DNA of 64,000 nt. Origin: Candidatus Gottesmanbacteria bacterium. GTDB lineage: Bacteria > Patescibacteriota > Microgenomatia > UBA10105 > UBA927. Every line of letters starts with the position of its first letter. The first letter of the stretch is position 1. The translations under genes and the position numbers were made by a program. The notes below the pieces were generated by a model, which saw only the letters and a list, made by a program, of their open reading frames with translations, did not search any database and was not told where the DNA came from. The stretch covers positions 245,735 to 309,734 of the forward strand of contig OY969569.1 in assembly GCA_963701185.1 (NCBI GenBank), written 5' to 3'. Positions 6,000 to 31,394 of this stretch are shown here, piece after piece.

Positions 6000-7114
6000 A
6001 ACAAAAACGCACGATTGTCATGACAGGAGGACATGTCACGCCGGCGATTGCGGTCATCGATGCATTGAAGGGAGACTCGTCGATCATATTCTTCGGAAGA
6101 AAGTATGCGACGGAAGGAAACCGTACTCTGTCTGCCGAATACCGGCTGATTACCGAAAGGGGCATTCCGTTTATTTCTCTTACGACCGGACGCCTGCAGC
6201 GTCAATGGACCTGGCAGACTATCCCGTCACTTCTGAAGATTCCTGTCGGGTGCATACAGTCGCTCTGGTATTGTCTGCGGCAGCGGCCCGCTCTGATCGT
6301 CAGTTTCGGCGGATATGTCGCACTGCCGACGGCATTAGCCGCGTGGCTTTGCCGGATTCCTGTTATTACCCACGAACAAACACTTGTCCCGGGGCTTGCC
6401 AACCGGCTGATTGCGGGGCTGGCCAGACGCGTCTGTGTCACGTTTCCTGAAACGCTCTCTCGTTTTCCGAAAGACAAAGCCGTAGTAACCGGCCTGCCGA
6501 TGCGCAAGGAATTATTTACCCCCTCGCCCAAGGCGGGGCCGTTTACGGCGGATCTTTCGCATTATCCGCTGATATATGTGACCGGCGGGGGGACCGGTGC
6601 CCAGTCATTGAACCGATTGTTGTTCCCCGTGCTCGCGTCACTTTTGGCGCACTATACGATTGTTCATCAGGTAGGCGACGCATCTTTTGCCGAAGCGGAA
6701 AAAATACGAACGGAACTTCCTGCCACATGTAAAGACCGGTATATCGTCCGGCTATATATACCAGTTTCGGAGTTGGCATGGGTGTTGTCCCGCGCGGTCA
6801 TCGTTCTTGGGAGGTCCGGCGCCAACACCGTGATGGAATTGGCGGCATTGGGAAAAGTTGCCATATTTGTCCCGCTTCCGTGGTCGGCCGGCGGCGAACA
6901 ACAGAAGAATGCCGCCTGGCTAAGCAGTCACGGTGGAGCAGTTGATCTTGCTCAGCATGAATTAACACCCCGAATTCTTGAGAATAAGATAGATGAGGTT
7001 CAAAAAAATATTGCATTTTTTCAACAACGCGCCTCTGTCTTCGCGGCAGAAGTTCCGCGTGACGGTACTCAGCGGTTCGTGCGTGAAATAGAACATTTGC
7101 TTTCCGCGACATGA
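5996..7114 (+). CDS. murG: UDP-GlcNAc:lipid I N-acetylglucosaminyltransferase
   Basis: GT28 MurG: TGGHVTPAIAV near the N-terminus and YVTGGGTGAQSLN in the C-terminal domain. Confidence 0.85.
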   Translation: MKQKRTIVMTGGHVTPAIAVIDALKGDSSIIFFGRKYATEGNRTLSAEYRLITERGIPFISLTTGRLQRQWTWQTIPSLLKIPVGCIQSLWYCLRQRPALIVSFGGYVALPTALAAWLCRIPVITHEQTLVPGLANRLIAGLARRVCVTFPETLSRFPKDKAVVTGLPMRKELFTPSPKAGPFTADLSHYPLIYVTGGGTGAQSLNRLLFPVLASLLAHYTIVHQVGDASFAEAEKIRTELPATCKDRYIVRLYIPVSELAWVLSRAVIVLGRSGANTVMELAALGKVAIFVPLPWSAGGEQQKNAAWLSSHGGAVDLAQHELTPRILENKIDEVQKNIAFFQQRASVFAAEVPRDGTQRFVREIEHLLSAT

Positions 7115-7817: not shown

Positions 7818-9108
7818 ATGGCGCGAGACCACATAGTATCCGGCATAGATGTCGGAACCAGTAAGATAACGACCCTGATTGCGACGGTTCCTGAAGAAGG
7901 AGATGCCCGTGTCATCGGAGTATCAACAGTTGCGAGCCGCGGCTTGCGGAAGGGCCAAGTGGTCAATATTGAGGAAGCAACGGGTGCAATTTCCGGAGCA
8001 TTGGAGGCAGCCGAACGCATGGCGGGAACGCAGGTTGCCCGGGCATTTCTTTCCGTCGGAGGCGCGCATATTGCATCGCAAAACTCCCACGGTGTGGTCG
8101 CCGTGTCTGAACCGGACAAGGAAATATCGGAAAGCGACGTCAAACGGGTTATTGAAGCGGCGAAAGCCGTATCACTGCCGTCGTCCCGCGAGATACTTCA
8201 TGTACTGCCGCGGGGATATGTTGTTGACAGCCAGGAAGGAATCGTGGATCCCGTCGGGATGACCGGCGTACGGCTTGAAGTTGATACACATTTGGTGACC
8301 GGCGGGGCAACGGCAGTGCGAAATTTACGTAAATGTGTGGAGGATCTTGGTGTTGAAGTGGAAGGTATGGTATTCGGCGGGTTGGCAGCGTCACTTGCAA
8401 CCATTACGGATACGGAAAAGGAATTAGGCGTGGTACTCATTGATATCGGCGGCGGGACAACCGATGTGGCGATTTTTGTTGAGGGGGCCTTGTCCTATTC
8501 ATCCGTCATTCCGATCGGGGCAATTAATATAACCAAAGATTTAGCGGCGGGACTCCGGGTGTCGCTGGAGAGCGCGGAAAAAATTAAATTGTTATTAGGG
8601 AAGACACCCCGTGTTCCGGCTGTTCCGGAAGAAGAAGCAAAGCAAATCCGAAAAAAGCGATGAGGTGGATGTATCCGGCTTGGGGCTTCCGGAGGAACTC
8701 AGAATGCTGTCAAGAAAAACGTTGGTTGAGGGAATTATCAAACCGCGGTTAAACGAAATATTTACGATGGTGGGCTTAGAGATTAAGCGGAGCGGTTTCG
8801 GCGGTATGACGCCGTCGGGGATCGTACTTACCGGCGGAGGCGCTCAGACCGTCGGTGGTGTCGAATCAGCGAGGCGCAATCTCGCCATGTCGGTGCATAT
8901 CGGCGAACCAAAAAAAATTACGGGTCTTGTTGATGAAATCATGACTCCCGCGTATGCCTCAAGCGTCGGCCTTCTGTTGTACGGCGCGAAGGGAGAATCC
9001 GGCGAACAGGGACGCGTATTTGGCGGACTTGGAAAAATCGGAGAAAAGGTGCAAATCAAAGGACTTGCAGGAAAGGTTATTGATCTGGTAAAGTCATTCA
9101 TGCCCTAA
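7818..9108 (+). CDS. ftsA: cell division protein FtsA, apparently interrupted by a single-base frameshift
   Basis: ORF 7818-8663 carries the FtsA N-terminal and central actin-fold domains (GIDVGTSK, DIGGGTTDVA, AEKIK). ORF 8611-9108, in the +1 frame, carries the FtsA C-terminus (SDEVDVSGLGLPEELRMLSRKTLVEGIIKPRLNEI, GIVLTGGGAQ). Removing one A from the A6 run at 8651-8656 gives a continuous reading ...IRKSDEVDV. Confidence 0.85.
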
Positions 9109-9153
9109 GAACAGACACCTGCATTTATTTCTTCTGCCCCCAATAGTATTTTT

Positions 9154-10302
9154 ATGCTGATTAAACCCGACATTGCCCGGTTTGCAAAAATTAAAGTCAT
9201 CGGTATCGGCGGCGGCGGCTGCAATGCTATCAACTCCATGATTGCCGGAAGCCAGATAACCGGGGTGGATTTCTTAGGACTGAATACCGATGCTCAGGCG
9301 CTTCTCACCTGTCAGGCGACGACGAAAGTGCAGATCGGAGAAAATCTTACTCGGGGTCTCGGGGCCGGAGGCGATCCGGACATAGGGAAACAGGCCGCGG
9401 AAGAATCGCGCGAGAAACTCAAGGAATACTTGCGGGATGCGGACATGGTATTTTTGACCTGCGGAGAAGGGGGAGGCACCGGAACGGGAGCAACGCCGAT
9501 TGTTGCTGAAATTGCCAAAGAACTCGGGTCCCTCACGGTGGCGGTTGTTACCAAACCGTTCCATTTTGAGGGAACGCGCCGCATGGTGACTGCAGAAGAA
9601 GGCATCATGAATCTCAAGGATAAGGTGGATACGCTTATCGTCATTCCCAACCAGCGGCTTATGGAAGTGATTGATAAAAAAATGACCCTCCTTGACGCCT
9701 TCCGTGTGACAGATTCGGTTCTGGGGCAGGGTGTTCAGGGCATTGCGGACCTTATCACCATGCCGGGTCTCATCAACGTGGATTTTGCCGATGTCCGGAC
9801 CATTATGACCAGTGCCGGAAGTTCCCTTATGGGGATCGGGACCGGCGTCGGAGAAAATAGAGCCGCCACGGCTGCCCGGACCGCCATCGCCTCTCCGCTT
9901 TTGGAGATTTCCATTGACGGGGCGAAGGGCGTCTTATTTAATATTACCGGCGGGCCGGATCTCACGATGGCTGAGGTGGATGAAGCCGCAAAACAGATTG
10001 CCGCCGCAGTTGATCCTGATGCCAACATCATTTTCGGCGCAACCATTGACCAGAATATGGTGGATCAGGTGAAAATTACCGTGATCGCCACGGGATTTGA
10101 TGAAACAAAAAAACGCCTGCGGGAGTTATCCGGCCAGCCCAGCTACAGCACCATGGCCCAGCCGACACAGACCCGCGTGACCCAAACGTCCAACCAGCCC
10201 CAGCCAAAGGCTGGCCAGCCTTTGGCTGGCCCGCGCGACGATGATCTTCCGCCGGAGGAAGACGAATTCGACATCCCCGCATTCCTGCGGCAGAGAAGTT
10301 AG
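9154..10302 (+). CDS. ftsZ: cell division GTPase FtsZ
   Basis: GIGGGGCNAINSM tubulin signature, the T7 loop region, and the C-terminal conserved peptide DIPAFLRQ. Confidence 0.95.
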   Translation: MLIKPDIARFAKIKVIGIGGGGCNAINSMIAGSQITGVDFLGLNTDAQALLTCQATTKVQIGENLTRGLGAGGDPDIGKQAAEESREKLKEYLRDADMVFLTCGEGGGTGTGATPIVAEIAKELGSLTVAVVTKPFHFEGTRRMVTAEEGIMNLKDKVDTLIVIPNQRLMEVIDKKMTLLDAFRVTDSVLGQGVQGIADLITMPGLINVDFADVRTIMTSAGSSLMGIGTGVGENRAATAARTAIASPLLEISIDGAKGVLFNITGGPDLTMAEVDEAAKQIAAAVDPDANIIFGATIDQNMVDQVKITVIATGFDETKKRLRELSGQPSYSTMAQPTQTRVTQTSNQPQPKAGQPLAGPRDDDLPPEEDEFDIPAFLRQRS

Positions 10303-10320
10303 AATCGCGGCGATAATTAG

Positions 10321-10348
10321 TTGTAGTATTTGTAAATACTTCTATAAT
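10321..10348 (+). promoter_or_regulatory. candidate sigma70-like promoter for the GH130 gene cluster (TTGTAG, 16 nt spacer, TATAAT)
   Basis: TTGTAG at 10321-10326 and TATAAT at 10343-10348, lying 7 nt upstream of the ATG at 10355. Confidence 0.35.
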
Positions 10349-10354
10349 AAAAGT

Positions 10355-11449
10355 ATGCCTGCCGCATCCCCTGCTGTACGTAAGAAAGTTTTGAGATGGG
10401 GTGTGTCGCGTGCCGCGGAGCCAGGAAAACGGAAGCAAAAGAAGCAGACAATCAAAACCATTCTTGTTAAGCATGATGAAAATCCGATAATTTTACCGAA
10501 CAGGGAGAACGGATGGGAAGCGTGGCAGACGTTTAATCCTGGGGCAATACTGCTTAATGATAAAATTCATTTTCTGTATCGGGCAATCGGTGAAGACGGG
10601 ATATCCCGGTTGGGGTATGCCGTTTCAAGCGACGGATTCCATATTGATGACCGTTTATCGTATCCGGCGTATGAGCACAAGATAAAAGACAGGGTATATA
10701 CGCTGTATTCATATTTTTCCGGCGGCAGTTGGGGCGGCGCTGAAGATCCGCGCATTGTCCGTGTGGACAATGAAGATACGCTCTATGTCATGTATACAGC
10801 CTGTGATAACGGACTTCGGGTGGGATTGACATCAATTAGCGTCGATGATTTTTTACATAATCGGTGGCGATGGAAGCCGCCGGTTCTGGTTTCGCCGCCA
10901 GGTGAGATTCATAAAAACTGGTTGATTTTTCCTGAAAAAATCCACGGCAAATACGCTATCCTTCACAGTATCAGGCCGGTAATCCAAATAGAATACGTTG
11001 ATAGTCTGAATTTTGACGATACGGCGTACATCCGTAGTTCTTATGGCGGAGGCCCGCGGACGCGATGTTGGGATAAGTGGCTGCGGGGAGCCGGAGCGCC
11101 TCCCATAAAAACTCGGGAGGGTTGGCTTTTGTTTTATCATGCAATAGATGGTGACTGGAGTAAATATAAGGTGGGAGTCATGCTTCTTGATCTTGATGAT
11201 CCGACAAAAATACTCTGCCGCGCCAAAAAACCGATACTTGAACCGACAGAGTCGTATGAAAACAACGGGTACAAATCCGGCGTCGTGTATGTTTCGGGAG
11301 CGGCCGTAAAAAACGGCAATCTTTTCGTGTATTATGGCTGTGCAGACAATTATATCGGCGTTGCGTATGCGAATCTGGACGAATTTGTCGAGATGCTGAA
11401 AAAAGATGCAACCCCGACACTACGCGTAAAGACGTTAAAGAAAAAGTAA
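10355..11449 (+). CDS. GH130-family glycoside hydrolase/phosphorylase (single beta-propeller domain)
   Basis: ATG at 10355. GH130/DUF377-like motifs include NPGAILLNDKIHFLYRA, RLGYAVSSDGFHI, GAEDPRIV, APPIKTREGWLLFYHA and FVYYGCADNYIG. Confidence 0.7.
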   Translation: MPAASPAVRKKVLRWGVSRAAEPGKRKQKKQTIKTILVKHDENPIILPNRENGWEAWQTFNPGAILLNDKIHFLYRAIGEDGISRLGYAVSSDGFHIDDRLSYPAYEHKIKDRVYTLYSYFSGGSWGGAEDPRIVRVDNEDTLYVMYTACDNGLRVGLTSISVDDFLHNRWRWKPPVLVSPPGEIHKNWLIFPEKIHGKYAILHSIRPVIQIEYVDSLNFDDTAYIRSSYGGGPRTRCWDKWLRGAGAPPIKTREGWLLFYHAIDGDWSKYKVGVMLLDLDDPTKILCRAKKPILEPTESYENNGYKSGVVYVSGAAVKNGNLFVYYGCADNYIGVAYANLDEFVEMLKKDATPTLRVKTLKKK

Positions 11450-11453
11450 TATC

Positions 11454-13376
11454 ATGCTTGTTCAACGATTCAATAAAAATCCTATACTGACGCCCAAAAG
11501 TACATATTTTTGGCAGGCGGAGGCAGTTTTTAACGGCTGCCCGGTAAAAAAGGGAGAAAAAACGTATCTCGTGTACAGGGCCCTTTCCTTGCCGCACTTT
11601 CACCGGCTGGGTCAGCAACGGATGCGCGTTTCCAATATCGGCATTGCCGAAAGTTTTGACGGAATCAATTTTTCCAACCACAAACACTTTATTTTTCCGG
11701 AGTACCCATGGGAAAAATTCGGATGTGAAGATCCGCGGGTCACAAAACTCAATGACAAATACTTTATTTTTTATACGGCCCTATCGGAATATCCGCCGCG
11801 TGCTGACGGGATTAAAATTGCCGTGGCTGTCAGCGAGGACATGGAAACCATTAAAGAAAAACACCTCGTGACGACATTCAATTCCAAAGCCATGGCTCTT
11901 TTTCCGGAAATAATCGACGGAAAAATGTGGGCTATTCTGACAGTCCATACCGATCATCCTCCGGCAAAAATTTGTCTTGCATCATTTGACAACGAAAGTG
12001 ATATGTGGTCCCAACATTATTGGGAGGATTGGTACACAGCATTTGAGGATTCTGCATTGCCTCTTCAACGAAGACCTGAAGATCATATTGAGGTTGGCGC
12101 GCCGCCTTTAAAAACCCGTGACGGCTGGTTAGTCATATATTCGTATATTAAAAATTATTTTTCTCCGGAGAGACTCTTCGGATTTGAGGCAGTGTTGCTT
12201 GATTTACATAATCCTTTAAAAATCATTGGGCACACGGATGCGCCCTTTTTAACGCCGGAAGAGTATTATGAGAAAATGGGAATGATTTCGAATGTCATTT
12301 TTCCTTCCGGGGCCTCGATAGAAAATAATACCGTTCATCTTTATTACGGAGCCGCCGATACCACGTGCTGTCTTGTTGATATAAAGCTTGACTATCTGCT
12401 GAGACGGATAATGAAAAAAGATAGAAATCCCATAAAGTTTCAGCGCCAAAAAGAAAATCCGATTATCACCCCCAACCCGGAACATTCGTGGGAATCCAAA
12501 GCAACTCTTAATCCGGGAGCGATCAGTCTTGAGGGTACGATACATCTTCTGTATCGGGCGATGTCGGAAGACAACACGTCTGTTTTTGGTTACGCGAACA
12601 CGCAGGACGGTATTCACCTTGATCATCGTTCACCGCAACCGGTCTATAGTCCGCGGGAGCCTTTTGAACAAAAATTAGTTCCCGGGGGGAACTCCGGCTG
12701 CGAAGATCCCCGGCTTACGCAAATTGATGACAGAATTTATATGTTCTACACTGCGTTTGACGGAAGAAATTTACCCCGGATAGCTGTGACGTGGATATCC
12801 GTGAAGGATTTTCTGCTCCAGGCATGGAATTGGTCAAAACCACTGCTGATCTCATCACCTGATTTTGCCAACAAAAACGCATGTATTTTTCCGGAAAAAA
12901 TTGACGGGAAGTATTTTATTATCCATCGCTGCGGGAATGACATTGATTTTCATGTGTGTTCGGATTTAAATTTTGATGGCATTTCCTGGTTAGAGGAAAA
13001 CCGTTGGATCGCTCCCCGGAGGGGCATGTGGGACGATGAAAAAATAGGACTGGTAGCGCCGCCGCTTAAAACAGAACAGGGATGGATACTTTTTTATCAC
13101 GGGATTTCTTCGGAAGACCGTTTTTATCGGATAGGCGCGTGTTTGCTGGATTTCGAGAACCCTACGAAAATACTTGCGCGATTAGATAATCCAATCTTAG
13201 AACCGGAAACCGAGTATGAAAAAAAAGGAATCGTCCCGAACGTTGTTTTTCCCTGCGGCGCGGTCATACGGGAAAAAACTATTTTTATGTACTACGGCGG
13301 CGGCGATAAAGTCATCGGCGTCGCAACAATTCCGGTAAACGATTTGCTTGAAAGTCTTGAGTTTTATCGATATTAG
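11454..13376 (+). CDS. tandem double GH130-domain protein
   Basis: 640 aa made of two consecutive GH130-like units. Unit 1 is roughly residues 1-320 (NIGIAESFDG, CEDPRV, APPLKTRDGWLVIY, LYYGAADT). Unit 2 is roughly 330-640 (NPGAISLEGTIHLLYRA, GCEDPRLT, APPLKTEQGWILFYHG, MYYGGGDKVIG). Confidence 0.7.
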   Translation: MLVQRFNKNPILTPKSTYFWQAEAVFNGCPVKKGEKTYLVYRALSLPHFHRLGQQRMRVSNIGIAESFDGINFSNHKHFIFPEYPWEKFGCEDPRVTKLNDKYFIFYTALSEYPPRADGIKIAVAVSEDMETIKEKHLVTTFNSKAMALFPEIIDGKMWAILTVHTDHPPAKICLASFDNESDMWSQHYWEDWYTAFEDSALPLQRRPEDHIEVGAPPLKTRDGWLVIYSYIKNYFSPERLFGFEAVLLDLHNPLKIIGHTDAPFLTPEEYYEKMGMISNVIFPSGASIENNTVHLYYGAADTTCCLVDIKLDYLLRRIMKKDRNPIKFQRQKENPIITPNPEHSWESKATLNPGAISLEGTIHLLYRAMSEDNTSVFGYANTQDGIHLDHRSPQPVYSPREPFEQKLVPGGNSGCEDPRLTQIDDRIYMFYTAFDGRNLPRIAVTWISVKDFLLQAWNWSKPLLISSPDFANKNACIFPEKIDGKYFIIHRCGNDIDFHVCSDLNFDGISWLEENRWIAPRRGMWDDEKIGLVAPPLKTEQGWILFYHGISSEDRFYRIGACLLDFENPTKILARLDNPILEPETEYEKKGIVPNVVFPCGAVIREKTIFMYYGGGDKVIGVATIPVNDLLESLEFYRY

Positions 13377-13385
13377 GTCTGCGTT

Positions 13386-14735
13386 ATGGATATGGAATAT
13401 CTCCTGCGCCCGGATGTGCTTCTGGTTTTTACGTACGCGCCTGCGGGCCTCGGACACCTGCGGGTCACGGATGCCCTACATGACGGGTTGCCCGGCGGCG
13501 CCCATTCGGTACTTTTGGGCGCCGACGATACGCGCATTACCTATTGGCACCGGCTCATAAGCATTAATCCTGTTCTCCGGCGGATCATGGAATGGTTTCA
13601 AAAAGAGGAACAGCAAAGGTGGTTTAGCACGCTGTACGTTTTTGCGCTCCGGCATTCAACGGAGCGCCTCTATCGGCAGATGGAGCATTTACTGAGGACT
13701 CAGTGGCACGATAAAAAGGTCATGGTCGTTCTTTCCACGCACTTCGGACTTGCGCACCAGATTGCTGCCATCCGGCCGCGCCTTGAGAAAAAGTTCAGCA
13801 TGAAAATTGTACTGGTCGTGCAGGTGACGGATGCCACGTCCATGAAGATCTGGTATGTCGCAGGAGCGGATCTTATTACCGTCCCCAGTGAAAAAGTGAA
13901 AACAGAGCTGACGCAGTATGAGGGAAAACCCGGACGCAGCAGAACCGAGATTGCCGTGTTGCCGTACCCGTTAGGCAAAACGCTCGGGATGAGTCTCACG
14001 GGCGGCGAGTACGAACAAAGGCTCCGCCAGTACAACAAGGGTTCGGACGCAAGGATCAACGTCGTCCTGCCGGTTTCGGGGGCGGCAGTGGGACTGGCGT
14101 ATTATGATCAATTAATCCGCCGGCTGACGGAAAGTTCCGTCAGGTTCCGGATGTATCTGGTTGCCAGTAATACGATGCATACCGGGCCGTTTATCAGAAA
14201 AATGGAAGCGAAAAGTTCCGTGACGGTCGTGACTGCAGGATCGGATAAGGAAGTAGTGGATAACTACGAAAAACTTTACGGACGGGAAGTCATAGCCATC
14301 GAGATAGTCAAACCCAGCGAACAGTCCTTTAAGGCACTCCTGTCGCCGACGCAGCGGGGCGGCTCGATCATGCTTTTTATGCAGCCGATCGGGAAACAGG
14401 AAGAGGATAATCTGGCATTTTTAGCCGATCATAAGCTGCTGCCAAATCCGGAAGATCAGGAGAAACTCTCCCGCTATGCGCTGGCCCAGAAGATGCCTGG
14501 CGATGCGGAGTGTTTTGCGTGTCTGGAGCGGGCCCGTGTTTGGAAAGCTCTCCGGCTCACCAACGACCCAACGAAAGATGTAAAAATTATTAATTGGTGC
14601 ATCCGGGTCGGGATATTTGAGACTATGGCAAGACGCCGGGAGGCTATTTCTAAAGATCCGGAGCTTGCCGCAAACGGCGTTGGCCAATTTTGGGAAAAAG
14701 TGGATGTGTTGGTAAAAAAGAAACTGTTGGATTGA
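13386..14735 (+). CDS. GT-B glycosyltransferase, MGDG-synthase/UgtP-like (GT28 family)
   Basis: N-terminal LLVFTYAPAGLGHLRVTDAL resembles UgtP GNGHMQVTQSI. The central VVLSTHF...VVQVTDATSMKIWYVAGADLITVPSEKVK resembles MGDG_synth vvTD..H..W. The C-terminal PVSGAAVG and MQPIGKQEEDNLAFL resemble the UgtP PGQEKEN region. Confidence 0.5.
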   Translation: MDMEYLLRPDVLLVFTYAPAGLGHLRVTDALHDGLPGGAHSVLLGADDTRITYWHRLISINPVLRRIMEWFQKEEQQRWFSTLYVFALRHSTERLYRQMEHLLRTQWHDKKVMVVLSTHFGLAHQIAAIRPRLEKKFSMKIVLVVQVTDATSMKIWYVAGADLITVPSEKVKTELTQYEGKPGRSRTEIAVLPYPLGKTLGMSLTGGEYEQRLRQYNKGSDARINVVLPVSGAAVGLAYYDQLIRRLTESSVRFRMYLVASNTMHTGPFIRKMEAKSSVTVVTAGSDKEVVDNYEKLYGREVIAIEIVKPSEQSFKALLSPTQRGGSIMLFMQPIGKQEEDNLAFLADHKLLPNPEDQEKLSRYALAQKMPGDAECFACLERARVWKALRLTNDPTKDVKIINWCIRVGIFETMARRREAISKDPELAANGVGQFWEKVDVLVKKKLLD

Positions 14736-14758
14736 CAACGATACTGTGGGGGGACATA

Positions 14759-15259
14759 ATGAAAATAATGAGGCTTTCGACTTTGGTGATCGGCAGTTTT
14801 CTTTTCGTTACTATCCCGTTTTCGCAGGTAGTTGCCGCTCGTCCATCCGGTATTCCCACACGGAGACCGACGCCAGTGATGACACAACGGGCGGAGAAAC
14901 TGAATGCCGTCCTTACCCGCATGGTGAGTTTGAGCCGGCAGCGGCTGGATAACTACCGGGCATTCCTGACCAAAGTTCAGACGCGGATTGATAAACTTCA
15001 GGCAGACGGACATGACGTGAGCCGTTTCACCTCGTATATTACCCTGGCACATACCAATATTACTGCGGTAGATACGGCCATTACGCACATGACCCAAACG
15101 TTTGCCGCCCTCGATACCACCTCGGATAGGAAAACAATAATGGTAACAGTCCGGGCAGAGCTCACGAACGTCCGGAAAGCGTTTACCACGCTTCATACCA
15201 CGATGAAGCAGGTGGTGGAGCAGATAATCGATCAACAAACAAAAACACAGGAGAACTAA
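14759..15259 (+). CDS. hypothetical secreted alpha-helical protein (signal peptide)
   Basis: ATG at 14759 (ORF-track 14690 is a TTG extension). Signal peptide MKIMRLSTLVIGSFLFVTIPFSQVVAA, then a Thr/Gln-rich helical region. Confidence 0.4.
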   Translation: MKIMRLSTLVIGSFLFVTIPFSQVVAARPSGIPTRRPTPVMTQRAEKLNAVLTRMVSLSRQRLDNYRAFLTKVQTRIDKLQADGHDVSRFTSYITLAHTNITAVDTAITHMTQTFAALDTTSDRKTIMVTVRAELTNVRKAFTTLHTTMKQVVEQIIDQQTKTQEN

Positions 15260-15260
15260 T

Positions 15261-15494
15261 ATGGCAACAAAAAATACAAATCAGAATATAGCCCTGTTTG
15301 CAGTCATTGCAATCGTCGTGTGGGGTTTTGTCTACTTTTCCATGCGGGCCGGTCCCGGTGCAACGGTAAGTCGCGCGTCGCCCGGCACCACACTGACCGC
15401 CGGTGATGACGGACTCTCGCTGCAGCAGGATCTCAACGGCCTACAAAATGATCCAACGCTTGGGGAAGAAACCCAGCTCAATAGCGTTCAATAG
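15261..15494 (+). CDS. small single-TM membrane protein, hypothetical
   Basis: An RBS-like AGGAG upstream and one hydrophobic helix (IALFAVIAIVVWGFVYF), 77 aa. Confidence 0.35.
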   Translation: MATKNTNQNIALFAVIAIVVWGFVYFSMRAGPGATVSRASPGTTLTAGDDGLSLQQDLNGLQNDPTLGEETQLNSVQ

Positions 15495-15503
15495 GAGGGG
15501 TGT

Positions 15504-16235
15504 ATGAAGGCTGTCAAAACGTTTCTTATCATTGCGGTTTTGAGCCTCGTAGCCGTCACGTCCGCAGTATTGGCGAAAGAGCAGGACGACCGCGGCCCGC
15601 TTACCAAAATTACCTTTATTCATTACAAAAAAGATAAAAATCCGGCAAAGCCAGGGGGAGGCACAAAGCCCGGCTCCACAGCCTGCTACGGGTATTTAGC
15701 CCGCGGCGCAAAATGGAAAACAACGGAGCCGTATATCGTGAACCCGACCAATTCAGAGGGATTAAGTTCATCTCAAGTCTTTAACGCCGTGAGTGCGGGG
15801 GTTCAGGAATGGGATAGTCATCACGCAGGACCGGCAATTTTCGGAACCGGCAGTACCGATTCAAGCGCGGTGTACAACGAGGCGGCGCTGGACAATAAAA
15901 ACGTGGTTGTGTTCGGCGGGGGACTTGCTTCCAATATCATAGCCGTCACCAATGTCTGGGGATATTTCGGCGGTGCGCCGCAAACGAGAGGATTAGTTGA
16001 GTGGGATATGAAATTGAATTCAGTGTTTCAATGGGGCGACGGGGCGACCAACCCTGCTTTGATGGATCTGCAAAATATCGCAACCCATGAGTTGGGCCAC
16101 AGTGCAGGCATGGACGATCTCTATACGACCAGCTGCAACCTGGAAACGATGTACGGCTATTCAACCGAGGGAGACACGATAAAGCGCGATCTCAACACCG
16201 GCGACATCACCGGCCTCCAGGCGTTGTACCAATAA
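15504..16235 (+). CDS. secreted zinc metalloprotease, metzincin (matrixin/snapalysin-like)
   Basis: RBS GGAGGGG; signal peptide; an HELGHSAGMDD zinc-binding motif (HExxHxxGxxD) and a downstream Met-turn-like TMYGY. Confidence 0.7.
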   Translation: MKAVKTFLIIAVLSLVAVTSAVLAKEQDDRGPLTKITFIHYKKDKNPAKPGGGTKPGSTACYGYLARGAKWKTTEPYIVNPTNSEGLSSSQVFNAVSAGVQEWDSHHAGPAIFGTGSTDSSAVYNEAALDNKNVVVFGGGLASNIIAVTNVWGYFGGAPQTRGLVEWDMKLNSVFQWGDGATNPALMDLQNIATHELGHSAGMDDLYTTSCNLETMYGYSTEGDTIKRDLNTGDITGLQALYQ

Positions 16236-16242
16236 GCTTCGG

Positions 16243-16288
16243 GAGAACCAAACAACCCATCAGAAGTTTCCGATGGGCTGGTTTGTTT
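16243..16288. repeat. conserved hairpin-forming intergenic motif, copy 1 (probable bidirectional terminator between convergent genes)
   Basis: GAGAACCAAACAACCCATCAGAAGTTTCCGATGGGCTGGTTTGTTT. It contains an imperfect inverted repeat AACCAAACAACCCATC / GATGGGCTGGTTTGTT, and it is nearly identical to copy 2 over about 40 nt. Confidence 0.55.
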
Positions 16289-16300
16289 AATTAACGTCAA

Positions 16301-16870
16301 TCACTTTACTTTATACGCACCGTATCCAGTTGGGTCCGCGTGAGCAAACCACAGATGTCCGGGTCCGTAACTCGGATCAGTTCCCTGATCCATAATCGTG
16401 GCAAATTGTCCCCAGATACCATATCCGCCCGCGGGTATCAAACTTGGATTTGCCGTATAGTTTCCTACCCAAACAATTTTATAATGCCACACCGCTCCTG
16501 ATCCTCCGGCAACCTTTCCGTTCCATTCATTGTTTTCCCATGCCTGATAGGGCGGATTCGTCCAACCCTCTTTATTTCCGCGGTCCCACTCGGCATTCCA
16601 TTTCATGACCAGTTTATCTTTGGCATATGCGCCGAGATAATCTGCGGGTAATCCTTTTGCAAGTGACCAGCTTTCGCCGGTTCCGTTAAATATTCTGGCC
16701 GTATAGTTGTATCCAAACTCGTTAAATCCGGTACTTGTGCCTTGGACGATTCCCTGATTAATGATTTGTGTAACCACTCCGCTGCTTCCGAGCAAATATG
16801 CAAATACTAAAGCAATGGCAACAAGAAATACCGGCCGTACCGTATTTCCTTTTTTCATTTTAACTTTCAT
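16301..16870 (-). CDS. hypothetical secreted protein (signal peptide, Trp/Gly/Asn-rich)
   Basis: RBS GGAGGTG upstream on the minus strand; N-terminal signal/TM VFLVAIALVFAYLLGSS. Confidence 0.45.
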   Translation of the reverse strand: MKVKMKKGNTVRPVFLVAIALVFAYLLGSSGVVTQIINQGIVQGTSTGFNEFGYNYTARIFNGTGESWSLAKGLPADYLGAYAKDKLVMKWNAEWDRGNKEGWTNPPYQAWENNEWNGKVAGGSGAVWHYKIVWVGNYTANPSLIPAGGYGIWGQFATIMDQGTDPSYGPGHLWFAHADPTGYGAYKVK

Positions 16871-16971
16871 GTGTCACCTCCTCTCAAATAAAGTTCCTAT
16901 AACCACTATATCAGATACTCATATGTGTCCACCACCGCCTACGAGGACTCTCCTCGTAGGTCTAAGGTATC

Positions 16972-17006
16972 GAGAACCAAACAACCCACCGGAAGTTTCC
17001 GATGGG
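16972..17006. repeat. conserved hairpin-forming intergenic motif, copy 2
   Basis: GAGAACCAAACAACCCACCGGAAGTTTCCGATGGG, sitting 3' of minus gene 17026-17889. A perfect 10-bp GC-rich hairpin (CCTACGAGGA ctc TCCTCGTAGG, 16938-16960) lies immediately beside it. Confidence 0.55.
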
Positions 17007-17025
17007 TTGAATGAATAACGAAAAT

Positions 17026-17889
17026 TTACGGAGATACTACCTGTTTACCTGCATGTACATTTGCCTGAACAGAGCTTATACATTCGCCTTGATTTTTGAA
17101 AGATGGGTTAGTAAATTCTTTCCATCCGTCCTTTTTACAATCATCTATTTTTGTCCCGACCCTATGGGCAAAAACTTGAACATTTATGTCGCTACTTTTA
17201 TCCCAACCACCATTACATATTCCGGTAATGGGACCAAGTGAGTTACAGACTTCAGGGTTACTAGATAAACTATTTTGGGGCCAAACAAGCCACCTATCGT
17301 CTGATCCTTGTTGTGTAGTACCACTTAAACCCGCGTTACTTGCATGGTTAAACCAATAATATGAAATTCCTGCTCTCAATGTCCCATCAACAGCGAAGTA
17401 ATATTTATTTCCGCCATCGATTTTAAAATCTAATTTAGTAAAATCATGTTGCCATATTGTACGATCAGCTCCACTTGAGCCTTGGTATGTCAAGGTCGTT
17501 CCAGGATACAAAACCACACTATGAGTGATGTTAGGATTTGAATCATCATTTGTTCCATCAGTTAAATTACCTGATGTTATTTCTGAGATTCCGCCTGTAC
17601 CAGCATATAAACTTATATTGCTAAAGAGGGTTCCTAAAAATTCGGTATTCCCCACACTCCATGTGCGGATGCCTGTTACGACCCACTTCTCTCCAGCTTT
17701 ACCAATAGTAAAATCGTCACCACTCACGTAATCGTTTCCATTCGACCAGGCAACGTTACTTCTTAAAGGTCCAGCAACATTGTTTAAATTTATATTTGGT
17801 AAGCCACGACCTACGACTGGTGGACTAAGTGCAAATACTGGTGTTGCGAGAAATAAAGATGCTACAATTCCAAAAATTATATTTTTCAT
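17026..17889 (-). CDS. secreted protein with conserved C-terminal Cys-x19-Cys tail (CKKDGWKEF...FKNQGECIS)
   Basis: Signal peptide MKNIIFGIVASLFLATPVFA. The C-terminal 30 aa are shared with the protein encoded at 18000-18692. Confidence 0.5.
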   Translation of the reverse strand: MKNIIFGIVASLFLATPVFALSPPVVGRGLPNINLNNVAGPLRSNVAWSNGNDYVSGDDFTIGKAGEKWVVTGIRTWSVGNTEFLGTLFSNISLYAGTGGISEITSGNLTDGTNDDSNPNITHSVVLYPGTTLTYQGSSGADRTIWQHDFTKLDFKIDGGNKYYFAVDGTLRAGISYYWFNHASNAGLSGTTQQGSDDRWLVWPQNSLSSNPEVCNSLGPITGICNGGWDKSSDINVQVFAHRVGTKIDDCKKDGWKEFTNPSFKNQGECISSVQANVHAGKQVVSP

Positions 17890-17932
17890 TTATTTCACCT
17901 CCTTCCCTATAAATTTTTATAACCGATATTTC

Positions 17933-17963
17933 GAACAACCCATCGGATGTTTCCGGTGGGCTG
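17933..17963. repeat. conserved hairpin-forming intergenic motif, copy 3
   Basis: GAACAACCCATCGGATGTTTCCGGTGGGCTG, sitting 3' of minus gene 18000-18692. The stem CCCATCGG/CCGGTGGG is kept with a compensatory/wobble change relative to copy 2. Confidence 0.5.
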
Positions 17964-17999
17964 CATAAAGCAATGCTTTAACTGCAAAATCGTAGTTTA

Positions 18000-18692
18000 T
18001 TAATTTGCCGGCCAATTTTTCTCACCTGTCGCTACGAAGGAAACACAATCTCCTTGGTTTTTAAATACACCAAAATCTTCCCATCCTTCTTTTTTACACT
18101 CATCTTTATTTCCTGGAAGCGCTTCGGTTACGACCACGTTATCTAATACTGGTCCAAAGGCGCCAACAATCTGACTTGCGAACGTTATTGTTGTGCTCGT
18201 TCCTGTAGCTACGAATGAGTAAGTCAAACCTTGTTTCCACTTCATTGGCGATGGATAGTTATTACCTTCAATGGAAGTATCATAACTATAATCTTGGTGA
18301 TTTACCCCATCACTTACTCTAACTACTTTCGGGTTCGGGCTCCAATATGGGTCTGGAGCTGGTAAGTTGCCTGGATTTCCTGATAAATCGAAAGTCACTT
18401 TGTAAGTAGCTCCGGGCACTGTCGTAATAGTTTGACTGATTGATCCCGGTGTAAAACCATTTAAATCAATACTTCTGCTATCATCTGACGCTTCCCAAAG
18501 ACCGCCAATATAATCTACGCTATCCGAATTCACGGTCCAACCGATTATATCCGTAGCCCCTGAATAAAGAGTTATAAAGGTTGATCCAGGATTGGTTCCA
18601 GTTTCAAAACTACCATTAGAAATTAACGATGCTGCATAAACTGTTGTTGCGGACAATAAAAACAGTGCAGTTCCTAAAATTATTTTTTTCAT
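18000..18692 (-). CDS. secreted DUF642 / choice-of-anchor-C-like domain protein with C-terminal Cys-x17-Cys tail
   Basis: Signal peptide. LISNGSFETG...IIGWTV...SIDLNG...ISQTITTVPGATYKVTFDLSGNP matches the DUF642 pattern. The C-terminus KDECKKEGWEDFGVFKNQGDCVSFV is paralogous to that of 17026-17889. Confidence 0.55.
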   Translation of the reverse strand: MKKIILGTALFLLSATTVYAASLISNGSFETGTNPGSTFITLYSGATDIIGWTVNSDSVDYIGGLWEASDDSRSIDLNGFTPGSISQTITTVPGATYKVTFDLSGNPGNLPAPDPYWSPNPKVVRVSDGVNHQDYSYDTSIEGNNYPSPMKWKQGLTYSFVATGTSTTITFASQIVGAFGPVLDNVVVTEALPGNKDECKKEGWEDFGVFKNQGDCVSFVATGEKNWPAN

Positions 18693-18730
18693 TTTTCACC
18701 TCCTCTCTTTTTTTAATTTGCACAAAAAAT

Positions 18731-18746
18731 CCCGTCACGTGACGGG
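18731..18746. promoter_or_regulatory. perfect 16-bp palindrome CCCGTCACGTGACGGG in a divergent promoter region, abutting a TATAAT
   Basis: It sits between the divergent 18000-18692 (-) gene and ileS (+). TATAAT at 18748-18753 is 1 nt downstream. Confidence 0.3.
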
Positions 18747-18867
18747 ATATAATGAGAAACGACTGAGAAATGACACTGCAAATGTCATGGGCCCATAATT
18801 GCAGATATCGGCTGGAATGTCAACATATCAATAATAGCGCTTCTGCTGATATAATAAAGAAATCAGT

Positions 18868-21690
18868 ATGGCAAAGACGCAGACATTCAAACCGGTGACG
18901 GCAGGAGTGAATTTTCCCGAGCTCGAAGAGCGGGTGATCACATACTGGAAAGAGAATAAGATTTTTGAGAAATCCGTCGAGAGCAGGCCTGCGGATAAAA
19001 CATGGACGTTTCTGGACGGCCCGCCGTTTATTACCGGTCTCCCGCACTACGGAACATTACTTTCCAGCATCCCCAAAGATTTATTCCCGAGATATTGGAC
19101 GATGAAAGGGTACCGCGTGCGGCGCGTGTGGGGATGGGATTGCCATGGATTACCGGCGGAAAACAAAGTGGAAACCAAACTGCATCTCAAACGGAAAAAA
19201 GATATTGAGAGCGGGATCGGCGTCCAGAAATTCATTGACGAGTGCAAAACCTACGTTTCGGAAGTTTCCGGCGAATGGGAATGGTACGTTCTGCATATCG
19301 GCCGGTGGGTGGATTTCAAAAATGCCTATAAGACGATGGATACCGATTACATGGAGACAGTGATGTGGGTATTCAAACAGATGTTTGAGAAGAAATTAAT
19401 TTATAAGGGCCTGCGCGTGTCTCTCTACTGCCCGCACGACGTGACACCGATTTCCAATTTTGAAGTGGCGATGGACCCGGATAATTACAAGGAAATTACC
19501 GAGCCGGCGGCGGTCTTCATGTACCAGTCGGAAGAAGCGAAGGATACCTACTATCTTGCGTGGAGTACGACGCCGTGGAATAAAATCGCCACGCCCGCCC
19601 TTGCTGTTAACCCAAAACTGCAATACGTGAAAGTCCAGCAGGGGAATGAAAAATATATTTTAGCTAAATCGACCCTCAGGATGCTCTCCGATAAGCCGTA
19701 TAAAATTCTTGAGGAGTTTGCGGGGCGTACGCTGGTCGGCAAAAGATTTGAGCCGCACTACAACTTTTATACAATCGACGAAGGCAAAAAAGCATTCGTC
19801 ATTATCCCCGGAGATTTCGTGACCGCCGACGAGGGGACGGGGATCGTCACGATTGCCGCTTACGGCGAGGAAGATCTTGCGGTCATGCAAAAAGAGAATA
19901 TTCAAATTGTCCAGCATGTGGACGAAGAAGGCATCATAAAACCGGAGGTCCCCAAGTGGGCCGGGAAATATTATCTTGATGTGGATCCTCTTGTGATTGA
20001 AGATTTAAAGAAACGGGGGCTCATCTACCGCGTGGACGAATATACCCATCCGGTACCGACGTGCTGGCGCTGCCACACGCGCCTCATGTACGCGCCGCAG
20101 AACGCGTGGTACGTTCGGGTGCAGTCCTTAAAGGCAAAAATGAAGGCGACCAATGAGAAGGTGAACTGGGTTCCCGCGCACTTCAAGTACGGCAGATATC
20201 TCAAGAGTTTGGAGAACGCGCCGGACTGGTGCATCTCACGCAGCCGCTACTGGGGTTCGCCGGTTCCGGTGTGGGAATGCAAAAACGGGCATCTGTTCGT
20301 GCCGGGATCTATGAAAGAATTAGAGGAAGCGTCCGGTATGAAGATCACGGATTTGCATAAACCCGGCATCGACGCAGTAACAGTAACCTGCAAAGAGTGC
20401 AAAGAAAAAGCAATCCGCGTGTCAGAGGTGTTGGACAGCTGGATAGAAGCAGGCAGCGCTCTGTTTGCCGAACGGCACTTCCCCTTTAACAAAGACGTAA
20501 AACTTGAAGCATTCTTCCCTCCGGATTTCATCGTCGAGTATACCGGCCAGATCCGTGCGTGGTTTTACGTCCTGCATGTCATAGCCTGCGCCCTCTATGA
20601 TTCGCACGCATTTAAAAACGTCCTGGTGACCGGCGTTATTTTGGGTACGGACGGCAGGAAAATGAGCAAGAACTACAGTAATTATCCGGATCCTAAAGAA
20701 ACGCTTCTTACATACGGCGGGGATGCGCTGCGGCTGTATTTATTGGGGAGCCCGGTCATGCACGGAGAGGATATCCGCATTTCGGAACTTGAGTATAGGA
20801 ACCAGGTGAGGGGCATGCTCTTGCTTTTATGGAATGTGTATAACTTTTTCGTGACGTACGCCGCGATTGATACATGGACGCCGGAAAAATCGCCGGATAG
20901 TAAAAATGTACTGGACCGATGGATCGTTTCGAGATTAAACAGCACGATTGCCGATATCACCGAAAAAGGGTATGAGACATATGATACGCCGGTTATCGTG
21001 TCCGTCGCGTGGGCATTCATGCAGGACTTGTCTTTATGGTACGTGCGAAGGATCCGCGACCGCGTTGGGCCGACTGTCCCGGCGGGAAAAGATAAAAACG
21101 ATGCCTATCAGACATTGTGGCAGGTTCTTACCACGTATACAAAAATCCTTGCGCCGCTTATTCCGTTTGTGACGGAGGAAATATATCGGAATCTTACCGG
21201 AGAAGAGTCTGTACATTTGACTCTCTGGCCGGAGTCAGGGAGTGTGGATGCCGCATTGGAAAAAGAAATGAATCTTGCCCGCCAGGTTGTTGAAAAAGCG
21301 CACGCCATACGTAAAGCTGAAAAACTGAAAGTACGCCAGCCGCTGGCGCTTCTGACCGCGGTTACTCCCGTGGGGTTGTCGGAGGATGTCCGGCGTGTTA
21401 TTGCAGAAGAGGTCAATGTAAAGAAGGTAACCAATACGGTCGGGGAGTTGAAAGTGACATTAGATCTGGAATTGACTGATCAGCTGAAAAATGAAGGCGC
21501 CGCGCGGGAGCTCGTCCGCGACATTCAGAAGATGAGAAAAGAAAAAGGTTGTACAATAGATGCGCATATCACGCTGGTGTTGCCTGGCGACGATCAATCG
21601 CTATCGAAAGACCTTTTGGCATATATACAAAAAGAAACACTTGCGGATACCATTACATGGGGCGACGCACTCACCATATCGACTGGATAG
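18868..21690 (+). CDS. ileS: isoleucyl-tRNA synthetase, type 2 (eukaryote/archaeal-like)
   Basis: FLDGPPFITGLPHYG resembles eukaryotic-type IleRS FYDGPPFATGLPHYGH. WCISRSRYWGSPVPVW is present. GRKMSKNYSNYPDP matches the type-2 KMSK...NYPDP pattern. Confidence 0.8.
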   Translation: MAKTQTFKPVTAGVNFPELEERVITYWKENKIFEKSVESRPADKTWTFLDGPPFITGLPHYGTLLSSIPKDLFPRYWTMKGYRVRRVWGWDCHGLPAENKVETKLHLKRKKDIESGIGVQKFIDECKTYVSEVSGEWEWYVLHIGRWVDFKNAYKTMDTDYMETVMWVFKQMFEKKLIYKGLRVSLYCPHDVTPISNFEVAMDPDNYKEITEPAAVFMYQSEEAKDTYYLAWSTTPWNKIATPALAVNPKLQYVKVQQGNEKYILAKSTLRMLSDKPYKILEEFAGRTLVGKRFEPHYNFYTIDEGKKAFVIIPGDFVTADEGTGIVTIAAYGEEDLAVMQKENIQIVQHVDEEGIIKPEVPKWAGKYYLDVDPLVIEDLKKRGLIYRVDEYTHPVPTCWRCHTRLMYAPQNAWYVRVQSLKAKMKATNEKVNWVPAHFKYGRYLKSLENAPDWCISRSRYWGSPVPVWECKNGHLFVPGSMKELEEASGMKITDLHKPGIDAVTVTCKECKEKAIRVSEVLDSWIEAGSALFAERHFPFNKDVKLEAFFPPDFIVEYTGQIRAWFYVLHVIACALYDSHAFKNVLVTGVILGTDGRKMSKNYSNYPDPKETLLTYGGDALRLYLLGSPVMHGEDIRISELEYRNQVRGMLLLLWNVYNFFVTYAAIDTWTPEKSPDSKNVLDRWIVSRLNSTIADITEKGYETYDTPVIVSVAWAFMQDLSLWYVRRIRDRVGPTVPAGKDKNDAYQTLWQVLTTYTKILAPLIPFVTEEIYRNLTGEESVHLTLWPESGSVDAALEKEMNLARQVVEKAHAIRKAEKLKVRQPLALLTAVTPVGLSEDVRRVIAEEVNVKKVTNTVGELKVTLDLELTDQLKNEGAARELVRDIQKMRKEKGCTIDAHITLVLPGDDQSLSKDLLAYIQKETLADTITWGDALTISTG

Positions 21691-28688: not shown

Positions 28689-28704
28689 AGTAAAAGGTGT
28701 TTGT

Positions 28705-30006: not shown

Positions 30007-30007
30007 T

Positions 30008-30739: not shown

Positions 30740-31394
30740 GAACATCTCATGGTTTTCGCCAGATAAGTTAATAAAGGACTTACAGTGGGATTATCTATCG
30801 GAAGCGTCTAAGTTTGCGCGAGGAGAGATGCTAGATGTAGGATGCGGTAAAATGCCTTATAAAGCTATTTTTATGCCTAGAGTTAGTAAATATATCGGCA
30901 TTGATAAGTATAACCGGGATGCTGACATTAAGAAAGACTTTTTGAAAGCAACGATTTTTGATAAATCGTTCGACACTGTACTATGTACACAAGTTTTAGA
31001 GCATATTCCTGAACCACAAAAGTTTTTAGAAAAGATTAACAAGGTGTTAAAAAAGAATGGCGTTCTTATTTTAACAGTGCCTTTCACGGGCCATCTACAC
31101 GAGGTTCCCCGAGACTATTACCGCTATACAAAGTATGGGCTTCGGTATATGCTCAAGAATGCGAATTTTAGAATCGTCTATATTAAGGCGGAAGGGAATT
31201 GGATTACCTCAATAGGACAGGAGATTATTTCTTACATCGAGCCTACGTTTAACCGTTTTTTACTTAAGTATCCCAAACGATTATTTCAATTAGGCGTTCT
31301 TTTACTGACTAAAGGTTTTTCAAAGCTGCCTGAACGATTTACTAAATCACAATATAGCGTTATTAACTATATTGTCGTTGCCAAAAAGCAGTAA
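30729..31394 (+). CDS. class I SAM-dependent methyltransferase
   Basis: Motif I MLDVGCGKMPY and a post-I FDTVLCTQVLEHI region, as in Methyltransf_11/23. Confidence 0.6.
   Translation: MANKNISWFSPDKLIKDLQWDYLSEASKFARGEMLDVGCGKMPYKAIFMPRVSKYIGIDKYNRDADIKKDFLKATIFDKSFDTVLCTQVLEHIPEPQKFLEKINKVLKKNGVLILTVPFTGHLHEVPRDYYRYTKYGLRYMLKNANFRIVYIKAEGNWITSIGQEIISYIEPTFNRFLLKYPKRLFQLGVLLLTKGFSKLPERFTKSQYSVINYIVVAKKQ

Follow-up and report, generated by a model that had tools for sequence, protein, structure and literature searches.

The window analyzed here is a 64,000-nucleotide (nt) stretch of DNA from Candidatus Gottesmanbacteria (contig OY969569.1), and our subject is three adjacent genes in it that encode a single-domain GH130 protein (A), a second GH130 protein made of two fused domains (B, with halves B1 and B2), and a glycosyltransferase-like protein (GT). 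These are probably two independent things that abut: a beta-1,2-mannoside GH130 gene pair that is conserved in bacteria of the Candidate Phyla Radiation (CPR), and a separately inherited GT-B glycosyltransferase that resembles monogalactosyldiacylglycerol (MGDG) synthase. GH130 and GT-B proteins are themselves known kinds; what is new is a fused GH130 protein with asymmetric active sites, conserved in CPR bacteria, and a compact, unannotated GT-B family. The genes and domains are as follows; PF04041 is the Pfam family Glyco_hydro_130, whose gathering score is 26 bits.

10355-11449, plus strand: A, single-domain GH130 protein of 364 amino acids (aa); one PF04041 match (E 6e-41, 140.8 bits)
11454-13376, plus strand: B, tandem GH130 protein of 640 aa; PF04041 matches each half separately
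11454-12443, plus strand: B1, N-terminal GH130 domain of B, residues 1-330; PF04041 E 4e-42, 144.6 bits
12444-13376, plus strand: B2, C-terminal GH130 domain of B, residues 331-640; PF04041 E 9e-57, 192.9 bits
13386-14735, plus strand: GT, GT-B glycosyltransferase-like protein of 449 aa, classed by the fold of its AlphaFold2 (AF2) model and by family motifs

An earlier note on this DNA had placed these three open reading frames (ORFs) at exactly this stretch and had counted three GH130 domains in one single and one tandem-fused gene; both descriptions hold. The gaps are 4 nt between A and B and 9 nt between B and GT. The three genes lie directly downstream of a division and cell-wall cluster (murG 5996-7114, ftsQ, ftsA, ftsZ 9154-10302). 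The triplication of the GH130 domain can be detected in the DNA itself as repeats ~975 nt apart; one 25-nt stretch, for instance, recurs at 10926, 11899 and 12886. In L001, assembled independently from the same organism, A, B and GT are present with zero differences across the three genes. The window sits in a contig of 995,214 bp, and its nearest relatives are Microgenomates (Gottesmanbacteria-like) CPR bacteria. ORFs on the minus strand that overlap A, B and GT are unsupported and were taken as spurious.

GH130 domains and their active sites

All three domains exceed the PF04041 gathering score, and for all three the nearest relatives, by sequence as well as by structure, are the beta-1,2-mannoside phosphorylases Teth514_1788 and Teth514_1789 of Thermoanaerobacter (GH130_6). 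Sequence matches of A, B1 and B2 in the PDB have E values of 1e-48 to 8e-40. The best match for A is Teth514_1788, a 1,2-beta-oligomannan phosphorylase (9fj8, E 1e-48), which B2 also matches over the full length of B2 with 206 bits. The AF2 model of B (pLDDT 93.3, pTM 0.85) has 9gph/9fj8 as its best structural match, with 38% identity and a TM score of 0.88-0.90 normalized to the ~300-residue target, the aligned half of B not being specified. B1, with 28-31% identity to A and B2, has diverged furthest among the three. The NCBIfam equivalog model for beta-1,2-mannobiose phosphorylase (NF052550, cut-off 450) gives the tandem 444.6 bits summed over its two domains and A 192.2 bits, both below the cut-off; for GH130_3 beta-1,2-mannosidases, the NF058598 score was 203, far below the cut-off of 550. 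By eye there is no hydrophobic segment at the N-terminus of A (MPAASPAVRKKVLRWGVSRAAEPGKRKQKK) or of B, in which the propeller starts at residue 3, and both proteins appear to be cytoplasmic.

Active sites were read off pairwise alignments (to 9fj8 and 7fip) using the residue criteria of Li et al. 2020 (PMC7660257), Cuskin et al. 2015 (PMC4599007) and a 2025 ACS Catalysis paper (PMC12814180), and conservation was scored in 178 tandem and 63 single-domain orthologues. The reference positions are the proton-donor Asp (Uhgb_MP D104 / BT3780 D142, in the motif G-x-[EY]-D-P-R), the phosphate-binding pair (Uhgb_MP R168/H231; Uhgb_MS R202/H261) and the beta-1,2 signature, which consists of Glu (not Tyr) beside the catalytic Asp and of Lys at the position of Uhgb_MP R150 / BT3780 K199. 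All three domains keep the proton donor (A D131, B1 D93, B2 D418) and the Glu/Lys signature (A E130/K187, B1 E92/K145, B2 E417/K474), and two further residues of the sugar site, an N-terminal Arg and a C-terminal Asp, are likewise common to the three. None of these residues varies among the orthologues. The earlier note had made an enzymatic role depend on the catalytic Asp and the phosphate-binding Arg and His. The Asp is intact in all three domains; the canonical Arg/His pair is intact in B2 only.

B2 carries the complete signature of a beta-1,2-mannoside phosphorylase (Arg368, Glu417-Asp418, Lys474, His491-Arg492, Lys530, His549, Asp618), and all seven signature residues are invariant in the 178 members of the tandem family, including the phosphate pair R492/H549. 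Lys530 occupies the place of a third phosphate-stabilizing Arg. A keeps Glu130-Asp131, Lys187, the phosphate-binding His262 and Asp331, and by alignment to Teth514_1788 has Ser205 at the position of the phosphate Arg (sequence H204-S-I-R207-P). This position is variable in the 63 A-type orthologues (R in 26, S in 22, G in 7, N in 6 and A in 2), of which 21 have the full Arg/His pair. In B1, Arg42, Glu92-Asp93, Lys145 and Asp302 are each present in 178/178 tandem proteins, and both phosphate ligands are gone: Ser230 stands at the His position and a Thr at the Arg position, this being T166 in the HMMER alignment and T163 by the strand register of the model, both of them conserved. Around the former phosphate ligands in the sequence lie three carboxylates, Asp167, Asp210 and Glu213. 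In the 178 proteins T166 is found in 174, S230 in 168, and D167, D210 and E213 in 177 each. The model of B1 also shows a helical insertion at ~181-200.

Every GH130 phosphorylase has the phosphate Arg, by which the phosphorylases are told apart from the hydrolases (PMC12814180), and replacement of the basic phosphate ligands by carboxylates gives beta-1,2-mannosidases (PMC4599007). Because of this rule B1 is read as hydrolase-like or otherwise non-phosphorolytic, which is the most likely interpretation of its residues. B2 is, to judge from its complete signature, a bona fide beta-1,2-mannoside phosphorylase. Our reading of A is that of a variant whose phosphate site may be weakened or shifted.

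Conservation of the gene pair and descent of the glycosyltransferase

Multi-modular GH130 proteins are rare, with 6 sequences among 1592 CAZy entries, and GH130-GH130 is one of the two combinations listed (PMC7660257). This rarity is confined to catalogued GH130s; the tandem is a widespread and very conserved CPR protein. Nearly all of the 120 best database clusters for B contain proteins of ~640 aa that match with 98-100% query coverage and 63-86% identity, the exception being one protein of 1110 aa with a C-terminal extension and 51% identity. Source labels of the tandem relatives include Levy-, Harrison-, Jorgensen-, Wolfe- and Zambryskibacteria. The earlier note had called the fusion unusual, which is fair for the catalogue (where GH130-GH130 fusions were nonetheless already present) and does not hold for CPR bacteria. 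A and B are ~78-86% identical to their nearest relative, a divergence similar to that of isoleucyl-tRNA synthetase (79%); conservation about as strong as that of an aminoacyl-tRNA synthetase across CPR bacteria suggests a central role.

The pairing with A is conserved as well. Of 80 metagenome loci with the tandem, 52 extend far enough upstream for the pairing to be assessed, and in 45 of these a single-domain GH130 gene lies at most 300 nt upstream on the same strand, usually with a gap of a few nt; three more have such a gene farther upstream. What is conserved is thus the A+B pair as a whole, with three GH130 domains. In other CPR loci the pair has recurrent neighbors: a mannose-6-phosphate isomerase (PMI) cupin (PF01050) in 20, a phosphomannomutase (PMM)-like protein (PF03332/HAD-IIB) in 14, a small nucleotidyltransferase similar to rfaE domain II (closest to heptose-1-phosphate adenylyltransferase) in 14, and a DUF1361 gene in eight. 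The PMI, PMM-like and nucleotidyltransferase genes support a link to mannose-phosphate metabolism. A search of the 64-kb window for a DUF1361 homolog gave one marginal, implausible match (E 2e-4), to a secreted protein.

Both members of the pair are longer in some relatives. The tandem can be extended by a conserved C-terminal region of ~430 aa that Pfam does not recognize, so that the whole protein reaches 1060-1115 aa (L092 1628-4834, L096 7992-11213, L098 7872-11219, L106 1730-4912; P0226), and this extension points to a further partner activity. The upstream 'single' gene encodes 606-654 aa in L093, L095, L103, L109, L117, L120, L128 and L134, with ~270-310 extra aa at the N-terminus. The extra region has no Pfam match in L093 and is a degenerate GH130 propeller in L128 (PF04041 E 1e-16); at least some loci therefore encode four GH130-type domains.

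The third gene, GT, had been described in the earlier note as a GT-B glycosyltransferase with motifs like those of UgtP and MGDG synthase, and it was added there that failure of a GT28 hidden Markov model (HMM) to hit it would undermine a glycolipid role. Pfam, at E<=0.1, finds neither MGDG_synth (PF06925) nor Glyco_tran_28_C (PF04101) in GT, only a chance-level match to Glyco_transf_4 (E 0.09), and the NCBIfam UgtP model NF010135 gives 12 bits against a cut-off of 500. The failure is partial in one respect: 15 of 36 GT homologs reach the PF06925 threshold of 25 bits (25.2-29.4 bits, profile positions ~51-169). None of the 36 matches PF04101. PDB sequence searches with GT and with the GT family profile returned chance matches only, and hhalign of the family profile against the window's own MurG gave a probability of 0.6%, so that membership in GT28 is not shown at the sequence level.

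The fold and the motifs of the earlier description fared better. The AF2 model of GT (pLDDT 89.2, pTM 0.88) has a GT-B fold, with a four-helix insertion at residues 49-105. Foldseek gives 104 PDB matches at E<=0.001, and those listed are GT-B proteins; Arabidopsis MGD1 comes top (4wyi, E 3e-8, 13-15% identity, TM 0.5/0.64), followed by UDP-GlcNAc 2-epimerases with almost equal score, TreT, plant UGTs and MurG. Invariant columns in the family are G21-x-G23-H24, H119, H124, T148-D149, S231-G-A-A, K309-P-S-E312-Q and G336-x-Q-E-x-D-N342, and they include the G21, G23, H24, T148 and D149 of the motifs noted earlier. The motifs VTD-x(n)-W and K-P-S-E-Q/G-x-Q-E-x-x-N appear to resemble the TD and K..E/GQE..N motifs of MGDG synthase and UgtP, and together with G-L-G-H24 they would represent the nucleotide-sugar motifs and the catalytic His loop of that type. 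His24 would be the probable catalytic base, and K309 with Q338-E339-N342 the probable nucleotide-sugar site; this chemistry we infer.

Run against 1.84 billion protein representatives (at 50% identity), the GT family profile retrieves 318 at E<=0.001 and 257 at E<=1e-10. The family is sharply bounded, with no broad tail of weak matches and no spill into canonical GT28 families, and its members come mostly from Microgenomates and WWE3, with some from Anaerolineae. To judge by the model, GT is a GT-B enzyme of a small unannotated family that is distantly related to MGDG synthase; it would work in the manner of GT28, and its membership in GT28 is not demonstrable.

GT homologs have no conserved neighbor; the most frequent neighbor cluster, an ABC ATPase, accounts for 15 of 82 loci. 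An isomerase gene of the PGI/PMI type directly upstream is confined to some close relatives, such as L002 and L005. In these two loci a 328-aa gene lies directly upstream of, or overlaps, a GT homolog 55-57% identical to GT (L002 7018-8004; L005 7013-7999, the latter labeled Shapirobacteria). In L002 this gene is annotated as a bifunctional isomerase of the phosphoglucose/phosphomannose isomerase type (bact-PGI_C), an association that is anecdotal, and diacylglycerol kinase and PAP2 genes lie within 5 kb.

Are the GH130 pair and GT parts of one module? The earlier note had proposed that they form a sugar-1-phosphate salvage to glycolipid or glycan remodelling module. No GH130 gene lies within 8 kb of a GT homolog in any of 81 loci (80 species-representative genomes and one metagenome contig), and no GT is found near the tandem in any of the 80 tandem loci. 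The closest relatives settle the question. L165, whose tandem is 80% identical to B, has the order murG-ftsQ-ftsA-ftsZ-x-GH130-GH130x2-ileS-ftsW without GT; L163 and L164 (tandem 86% identical) have GH130x2 followed by genes of 119 and 195 aa, again without GT; L003 and L166 (GT 69-72% identical) have an orthologous 115-aa gene, GT and a 195-aa gene, and no GH130. Because these relatives carry one without the other in the ftsZ-ileS interval, the GH130 pair and GT are independent: the interval is a variable region that gains and loses the two separately. They are adjacent in this genome only, and this adjacency is a lineage-specific accident of gene order and compaction, not a conserved pathway.

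These observations contradict the module. As a biochemical scheme it would have GH130-derived sugar-1-phosphate converted to a nucleotide sugar, from which the MGDG-synthase-like GT would build or remodel a glycolipid or glycan, and this we regard as very improbable. The shared strand and short gaps suit it, as do a scan of 9000-16000 (uninformative in itself) that found no promoter or terminator above shuffled expectation, including between the three genes, the closeness of the GT fold to the galactolipid synthase MGD1, and a precedent for GH130-to-glycosyltransferase salvage in Thermoanaerobacter, where the homologous GH130 pair clusters with a mannose-1-phosphate guanylyltransferase (ManC) and a GT4 mannosyltransferase (PMC4264767). 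The counts from 81 and 80 loci and the separation of the two in the closest relatives speak against it, as do the lack of any conserved neighbor in the GT family and the fact that no nucleotidyltransferase gene was found in the window. For annotation there is a caution here: close packing of genes in a streamlined genome was, in this case, no sign of a shared pathway.

Proposed function of the GH130 domains

On the domain identities, residue patterns, conservation and synteny given above we would propose that A and B form a cytoplasmic beta-1,2-mannoside-processing system of CPR bacteria; the substrate, the reaction types of A and B1 and the metabolic routing are parts of this proposal. B2 would act as a canonical inverting phosphorylase, in which Asp418 protonates the leaving group via the O3 of the substrate and phosphate held by Arg492 and His549 attacks C1, with release of alpha-mannose-1-phosphate. 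A and B1, in which the whole mannose site and the catalytic Asp are kept and the phosphate pocket is remodeled, would most likely act on the same substrate by a non-canonical reaction, which for B1 is most likely hydrolysis. Mannose-1-phosphate could then pass via PMM and PMI to fructose-6-phosphate and glycolysis, or into nucleotide-sugar synthesis. Phosphorolysis would amount to ATP-free activation of hexose in organisms without sugar kinases. Related Microgenomates lack glucokinase (PMC7143001), and phosphorolysis would therefore supply them with phosphorylated hexose without ATP.

The invariance of the sugar-site residues and the catalytic Asp in all three domains would also suit three working phosphorylases that differ in chain-length or acceptor specificity, like Teth514_1788 and Teth514_1789, with shifted basic residues replacing the Arg and His. 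Arg207 in A and a Lys or Arg at position 168 in 111 of 178 B1 homologs lie two residues past the canonical Arg on the same strand face, some A-type orthologues have the full pair (as noted above), and some GH130 groups tolerate a change from His to Tyr in the phosphate site (PMC7660257). We judge it unlikely all the same that every domain is a phosphorylase. B1 combines loss of both ligands with invariant Asp167, Asp210 and Glu213, which is the pattern of GH130 hydrolases (PMC4599007), and in this window it has His168, not Lys or Arg; moreover, the Arg occurs in all known GH130 phosphorylases, and the R202A change in Uhgb_MS lowers phosphorylase activity 16-fold (PMC12814180). Could B1 instead be catalytically dead, serving as a carbohydrate-binding domain or as a pseudo-dimer partner of B2 that replaces the homodimer of Teth514_1788 and Uhgb_MS? 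The known relatives form dimers, in which the donor site is shaped by the interface (PMC12814180), the AF2 model sets B1 and B2 in a confident fixed arrangement, and B1 is the most divergent domain. However, Asp93 and every tested sugar-contacting residue are retained in 178/178 proteins and the three nearby carboxylates in 177/178, which goes beyond what a scaffold would need, and a dead B1 does not seem likely to us.

A further reading is that of a mannogen-like reserve, in which A and/or B1 would be nucleotide-sugar-dependent beta-1,2-mannosyltransferases that build (or trim or prime) an intracellular beta-1,2-mannan, and B2 would mobilize it as mannose-1-phosphate. GH130 phosphorylases specific for beta-1,2 linkages show measurable GDP-mannose transferase activity, and GT108 enzymes that have lost the Arg are transferases only; against this, R202A in Uhgb_MS abolishes transferase activity too (PMC12814180). 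The strong conservation and apparent cytoplasmic location of the GH130 proteins fit a reserve, and so do the PMI, the PMM-like HAD protein and the sugar-1-phosphate nucleotidyltransferase-like gene beside the pair in other CPR loci, but that nucleotidyltransferase is below its family cut-off (88 vs 181 bits) and a catabolic role accounts for the same neighbors. There is no report of beta-1,2-mannan in CPR bacteria. On balance a mannogen-like reserve is quite unlikely.

Several points weigh against the proposal that we prefer, of a beta-1,2-mannoside-processing pair with an unrelated GT beside it. The basic residues downstream of the missing Arg might partly replace it, in which case A and B1 may still use phosphate. 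The register of B1 at the Arg position is ambiguous between Thr166 and Thr163, and the roles suggested for Asp167, Asp210 and Glu213 come from sequence only. No biochemically characterized member of the tandem family was found in the GH130 literature. Homologs of PMI, PMM and the nucleotidyltransferase were not found in the 64-kb window, and none of the three is a neighbor of the pair in more than a quarter of the loci. Finally, the 9-nt spacing and the shared strand make it probable that GT and the GH130 genes are transcribed together in this organism, and a local functional link, though improbable, is conceivable.

CPR bacteria (Patescibacteria) are very poor in carbohydrate-active enzymes, and sugar kinases are often missing from them. 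In such organisms the GH130 triad could reveal both the source of phosphorylated hexose and how GH130 proteins switch between phosphorylase, hydrolase and transferase action, its arrangement (one canonical phosphorylase domain and two remodeled pockets, one of them fused to it) being an uncharacterized architecture. If the mannogen-like reading were true, ultra-small bacteria without hexokinase would have a storage carbohydrate and a kinase-free entry to glycolysis, and the system would be a bacterial counterpart, or a possible source, of the MTP system of Leishmania. As for the GT family, its product may be a membrane glycolipid, in bacteria that are unable to synthesize their own lipids.

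Other features and comparison with known systems

The earlier note had also pointed to a fourth GH130-like propeller elsewhere in the window:

26280-28688, minus strand: 802-aa protein with a hydrophobic N-terminus, a GH130-like propeller, a Pro/Thr-rich linker and an LCAT/PGAP1-like lipase (alpha/beta-hydrolase) domain

The propeller is there in so far as the protein matches PF04041 marginally (26.4 bits against the cut-off of 26). It is encoded on the minus strand, however, and in alignment to Teth514_1788 has Ser-Phe in place of the catalytic Glu-Asp. The protein does not belong to the GH130 unit; it has an unusual domain combination and is probably secreted.

A low-GC island at 28000-32500 (GC 0.34-0.36 vs ~0.48 elsewhere) encodes a Wzx-like multi-pass membrane protein (28705-30006), two methyltransferase-like proteins and glycosyltransferases, and looks like a horizontally acquired surface-glycan cluster. 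Two secreted proteins encoded on the minus strand (17026-17889 and 18000-18692), one with DUF642, share a C-terminal Cys motif, C-K-K-[DE]-G-W-x-[DE]-F ... F-K-N-Q-G-[DE]-C-[IV]-S, with 51% identity over 39 aa; the motif may serve to anchor or sort both proteins. The products of 15504-16235 (a matrixin-like M10 peptidase) and 16301-16870 also look secreted. The ftsA gene (7818-9108) is broken into overlapping ORFs (7818-8663 and 8611-9108) by an extra C at 8643, as judged against L001, whose FtsA is intact at 429 aa; there is a second 1-nt indel at 9148. The split is probably a sequencing or assembly indel, not a true pseudogene. Of the 32 two-kb bins of 1-64000, 31 have a positive GC skew, and nearly all genes are on the plus strand, a pattern akin to the one-directional strand disparity of the Microgenomates genome Ch65, which also carries two GH130 genes (PMC7143001). 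An Rfam scan of 9000-19000 gave no match.

Among known systems the closest is the Teth514_1788/1789 pair of Thermoanaerobacter X-514 (PDB 9FJ8/9GPH and 7FIP), the best match throughout with 37-38% identity and target-normalized TM scores of 0.87-0.90. There too adjacent paralogous genes encode proteins with the Glu/Lys beta-1,2 signature, which are cytoplasmic, as A and B appear to be, and every catalytic and phosphate residue is common to them and B2. In the window, by contrast, two paralogs are fused in one 640-aa chain, the phosphate Arg is absent from two of the three domains and the His from B1 as well, and no ABC transporter, GH5, ManC or GT4 gene lies alongside.

B1 on its own recalls the GH130_3 beta-1,2-mannosidases BT3780 and BACOVA_03624 (5A7V, 3QC2), which have carboxylates in place of the basic ligands and, like B1, keep the Asp donor and the residues of the Glu141 and Lys199 type (PMC4599007). 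The criterion for that group is a carboxylate pair (Glu227/Glu268 in BT3780) placed under C1 as the catalytic base, usually with a signal peptide. These enzymes are secreted or periplasmic single-domain proteins, whereas B1 makes up the N-terminal half of an apparently cytoplasmic protein and is much closer to GH130_6 (E 8e-40) than to GH130_3 (E 7e-11). Among the PDB alignments of B1 and A, 5A7V ranks 12th-15th.

The GT108 mannogen transferases/phosphorylases MTP1-7 of Leishmania (6Q4Y, 6Q50) have the same five-bladed propeller and act on beta-1,2-mannan, the substrate that we infer here. Their paralogs too differ at the phosphate Arg, which in Leishmania partitions transferase from phosphorylase activity (PMC12814180). 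The relation is a remote structural one (Foldseek E 4e-9 to 8e-9, 13-15% identity), and the Arg is replaced by His there and by Ser or Thr here. For GT, the reference systems are MGD1 (GT28; 4WYI/4X1T) and UgtP/YpfP, with which it has in common the GT-B fold and an N-terminal Gly-rich loop ending in an invariant His (G-L-G-H24); it differs from them in having no PF06925 or PF04101 match and in its length, which exceeds that of the solved MGD1 chains by ~60-110 aa.

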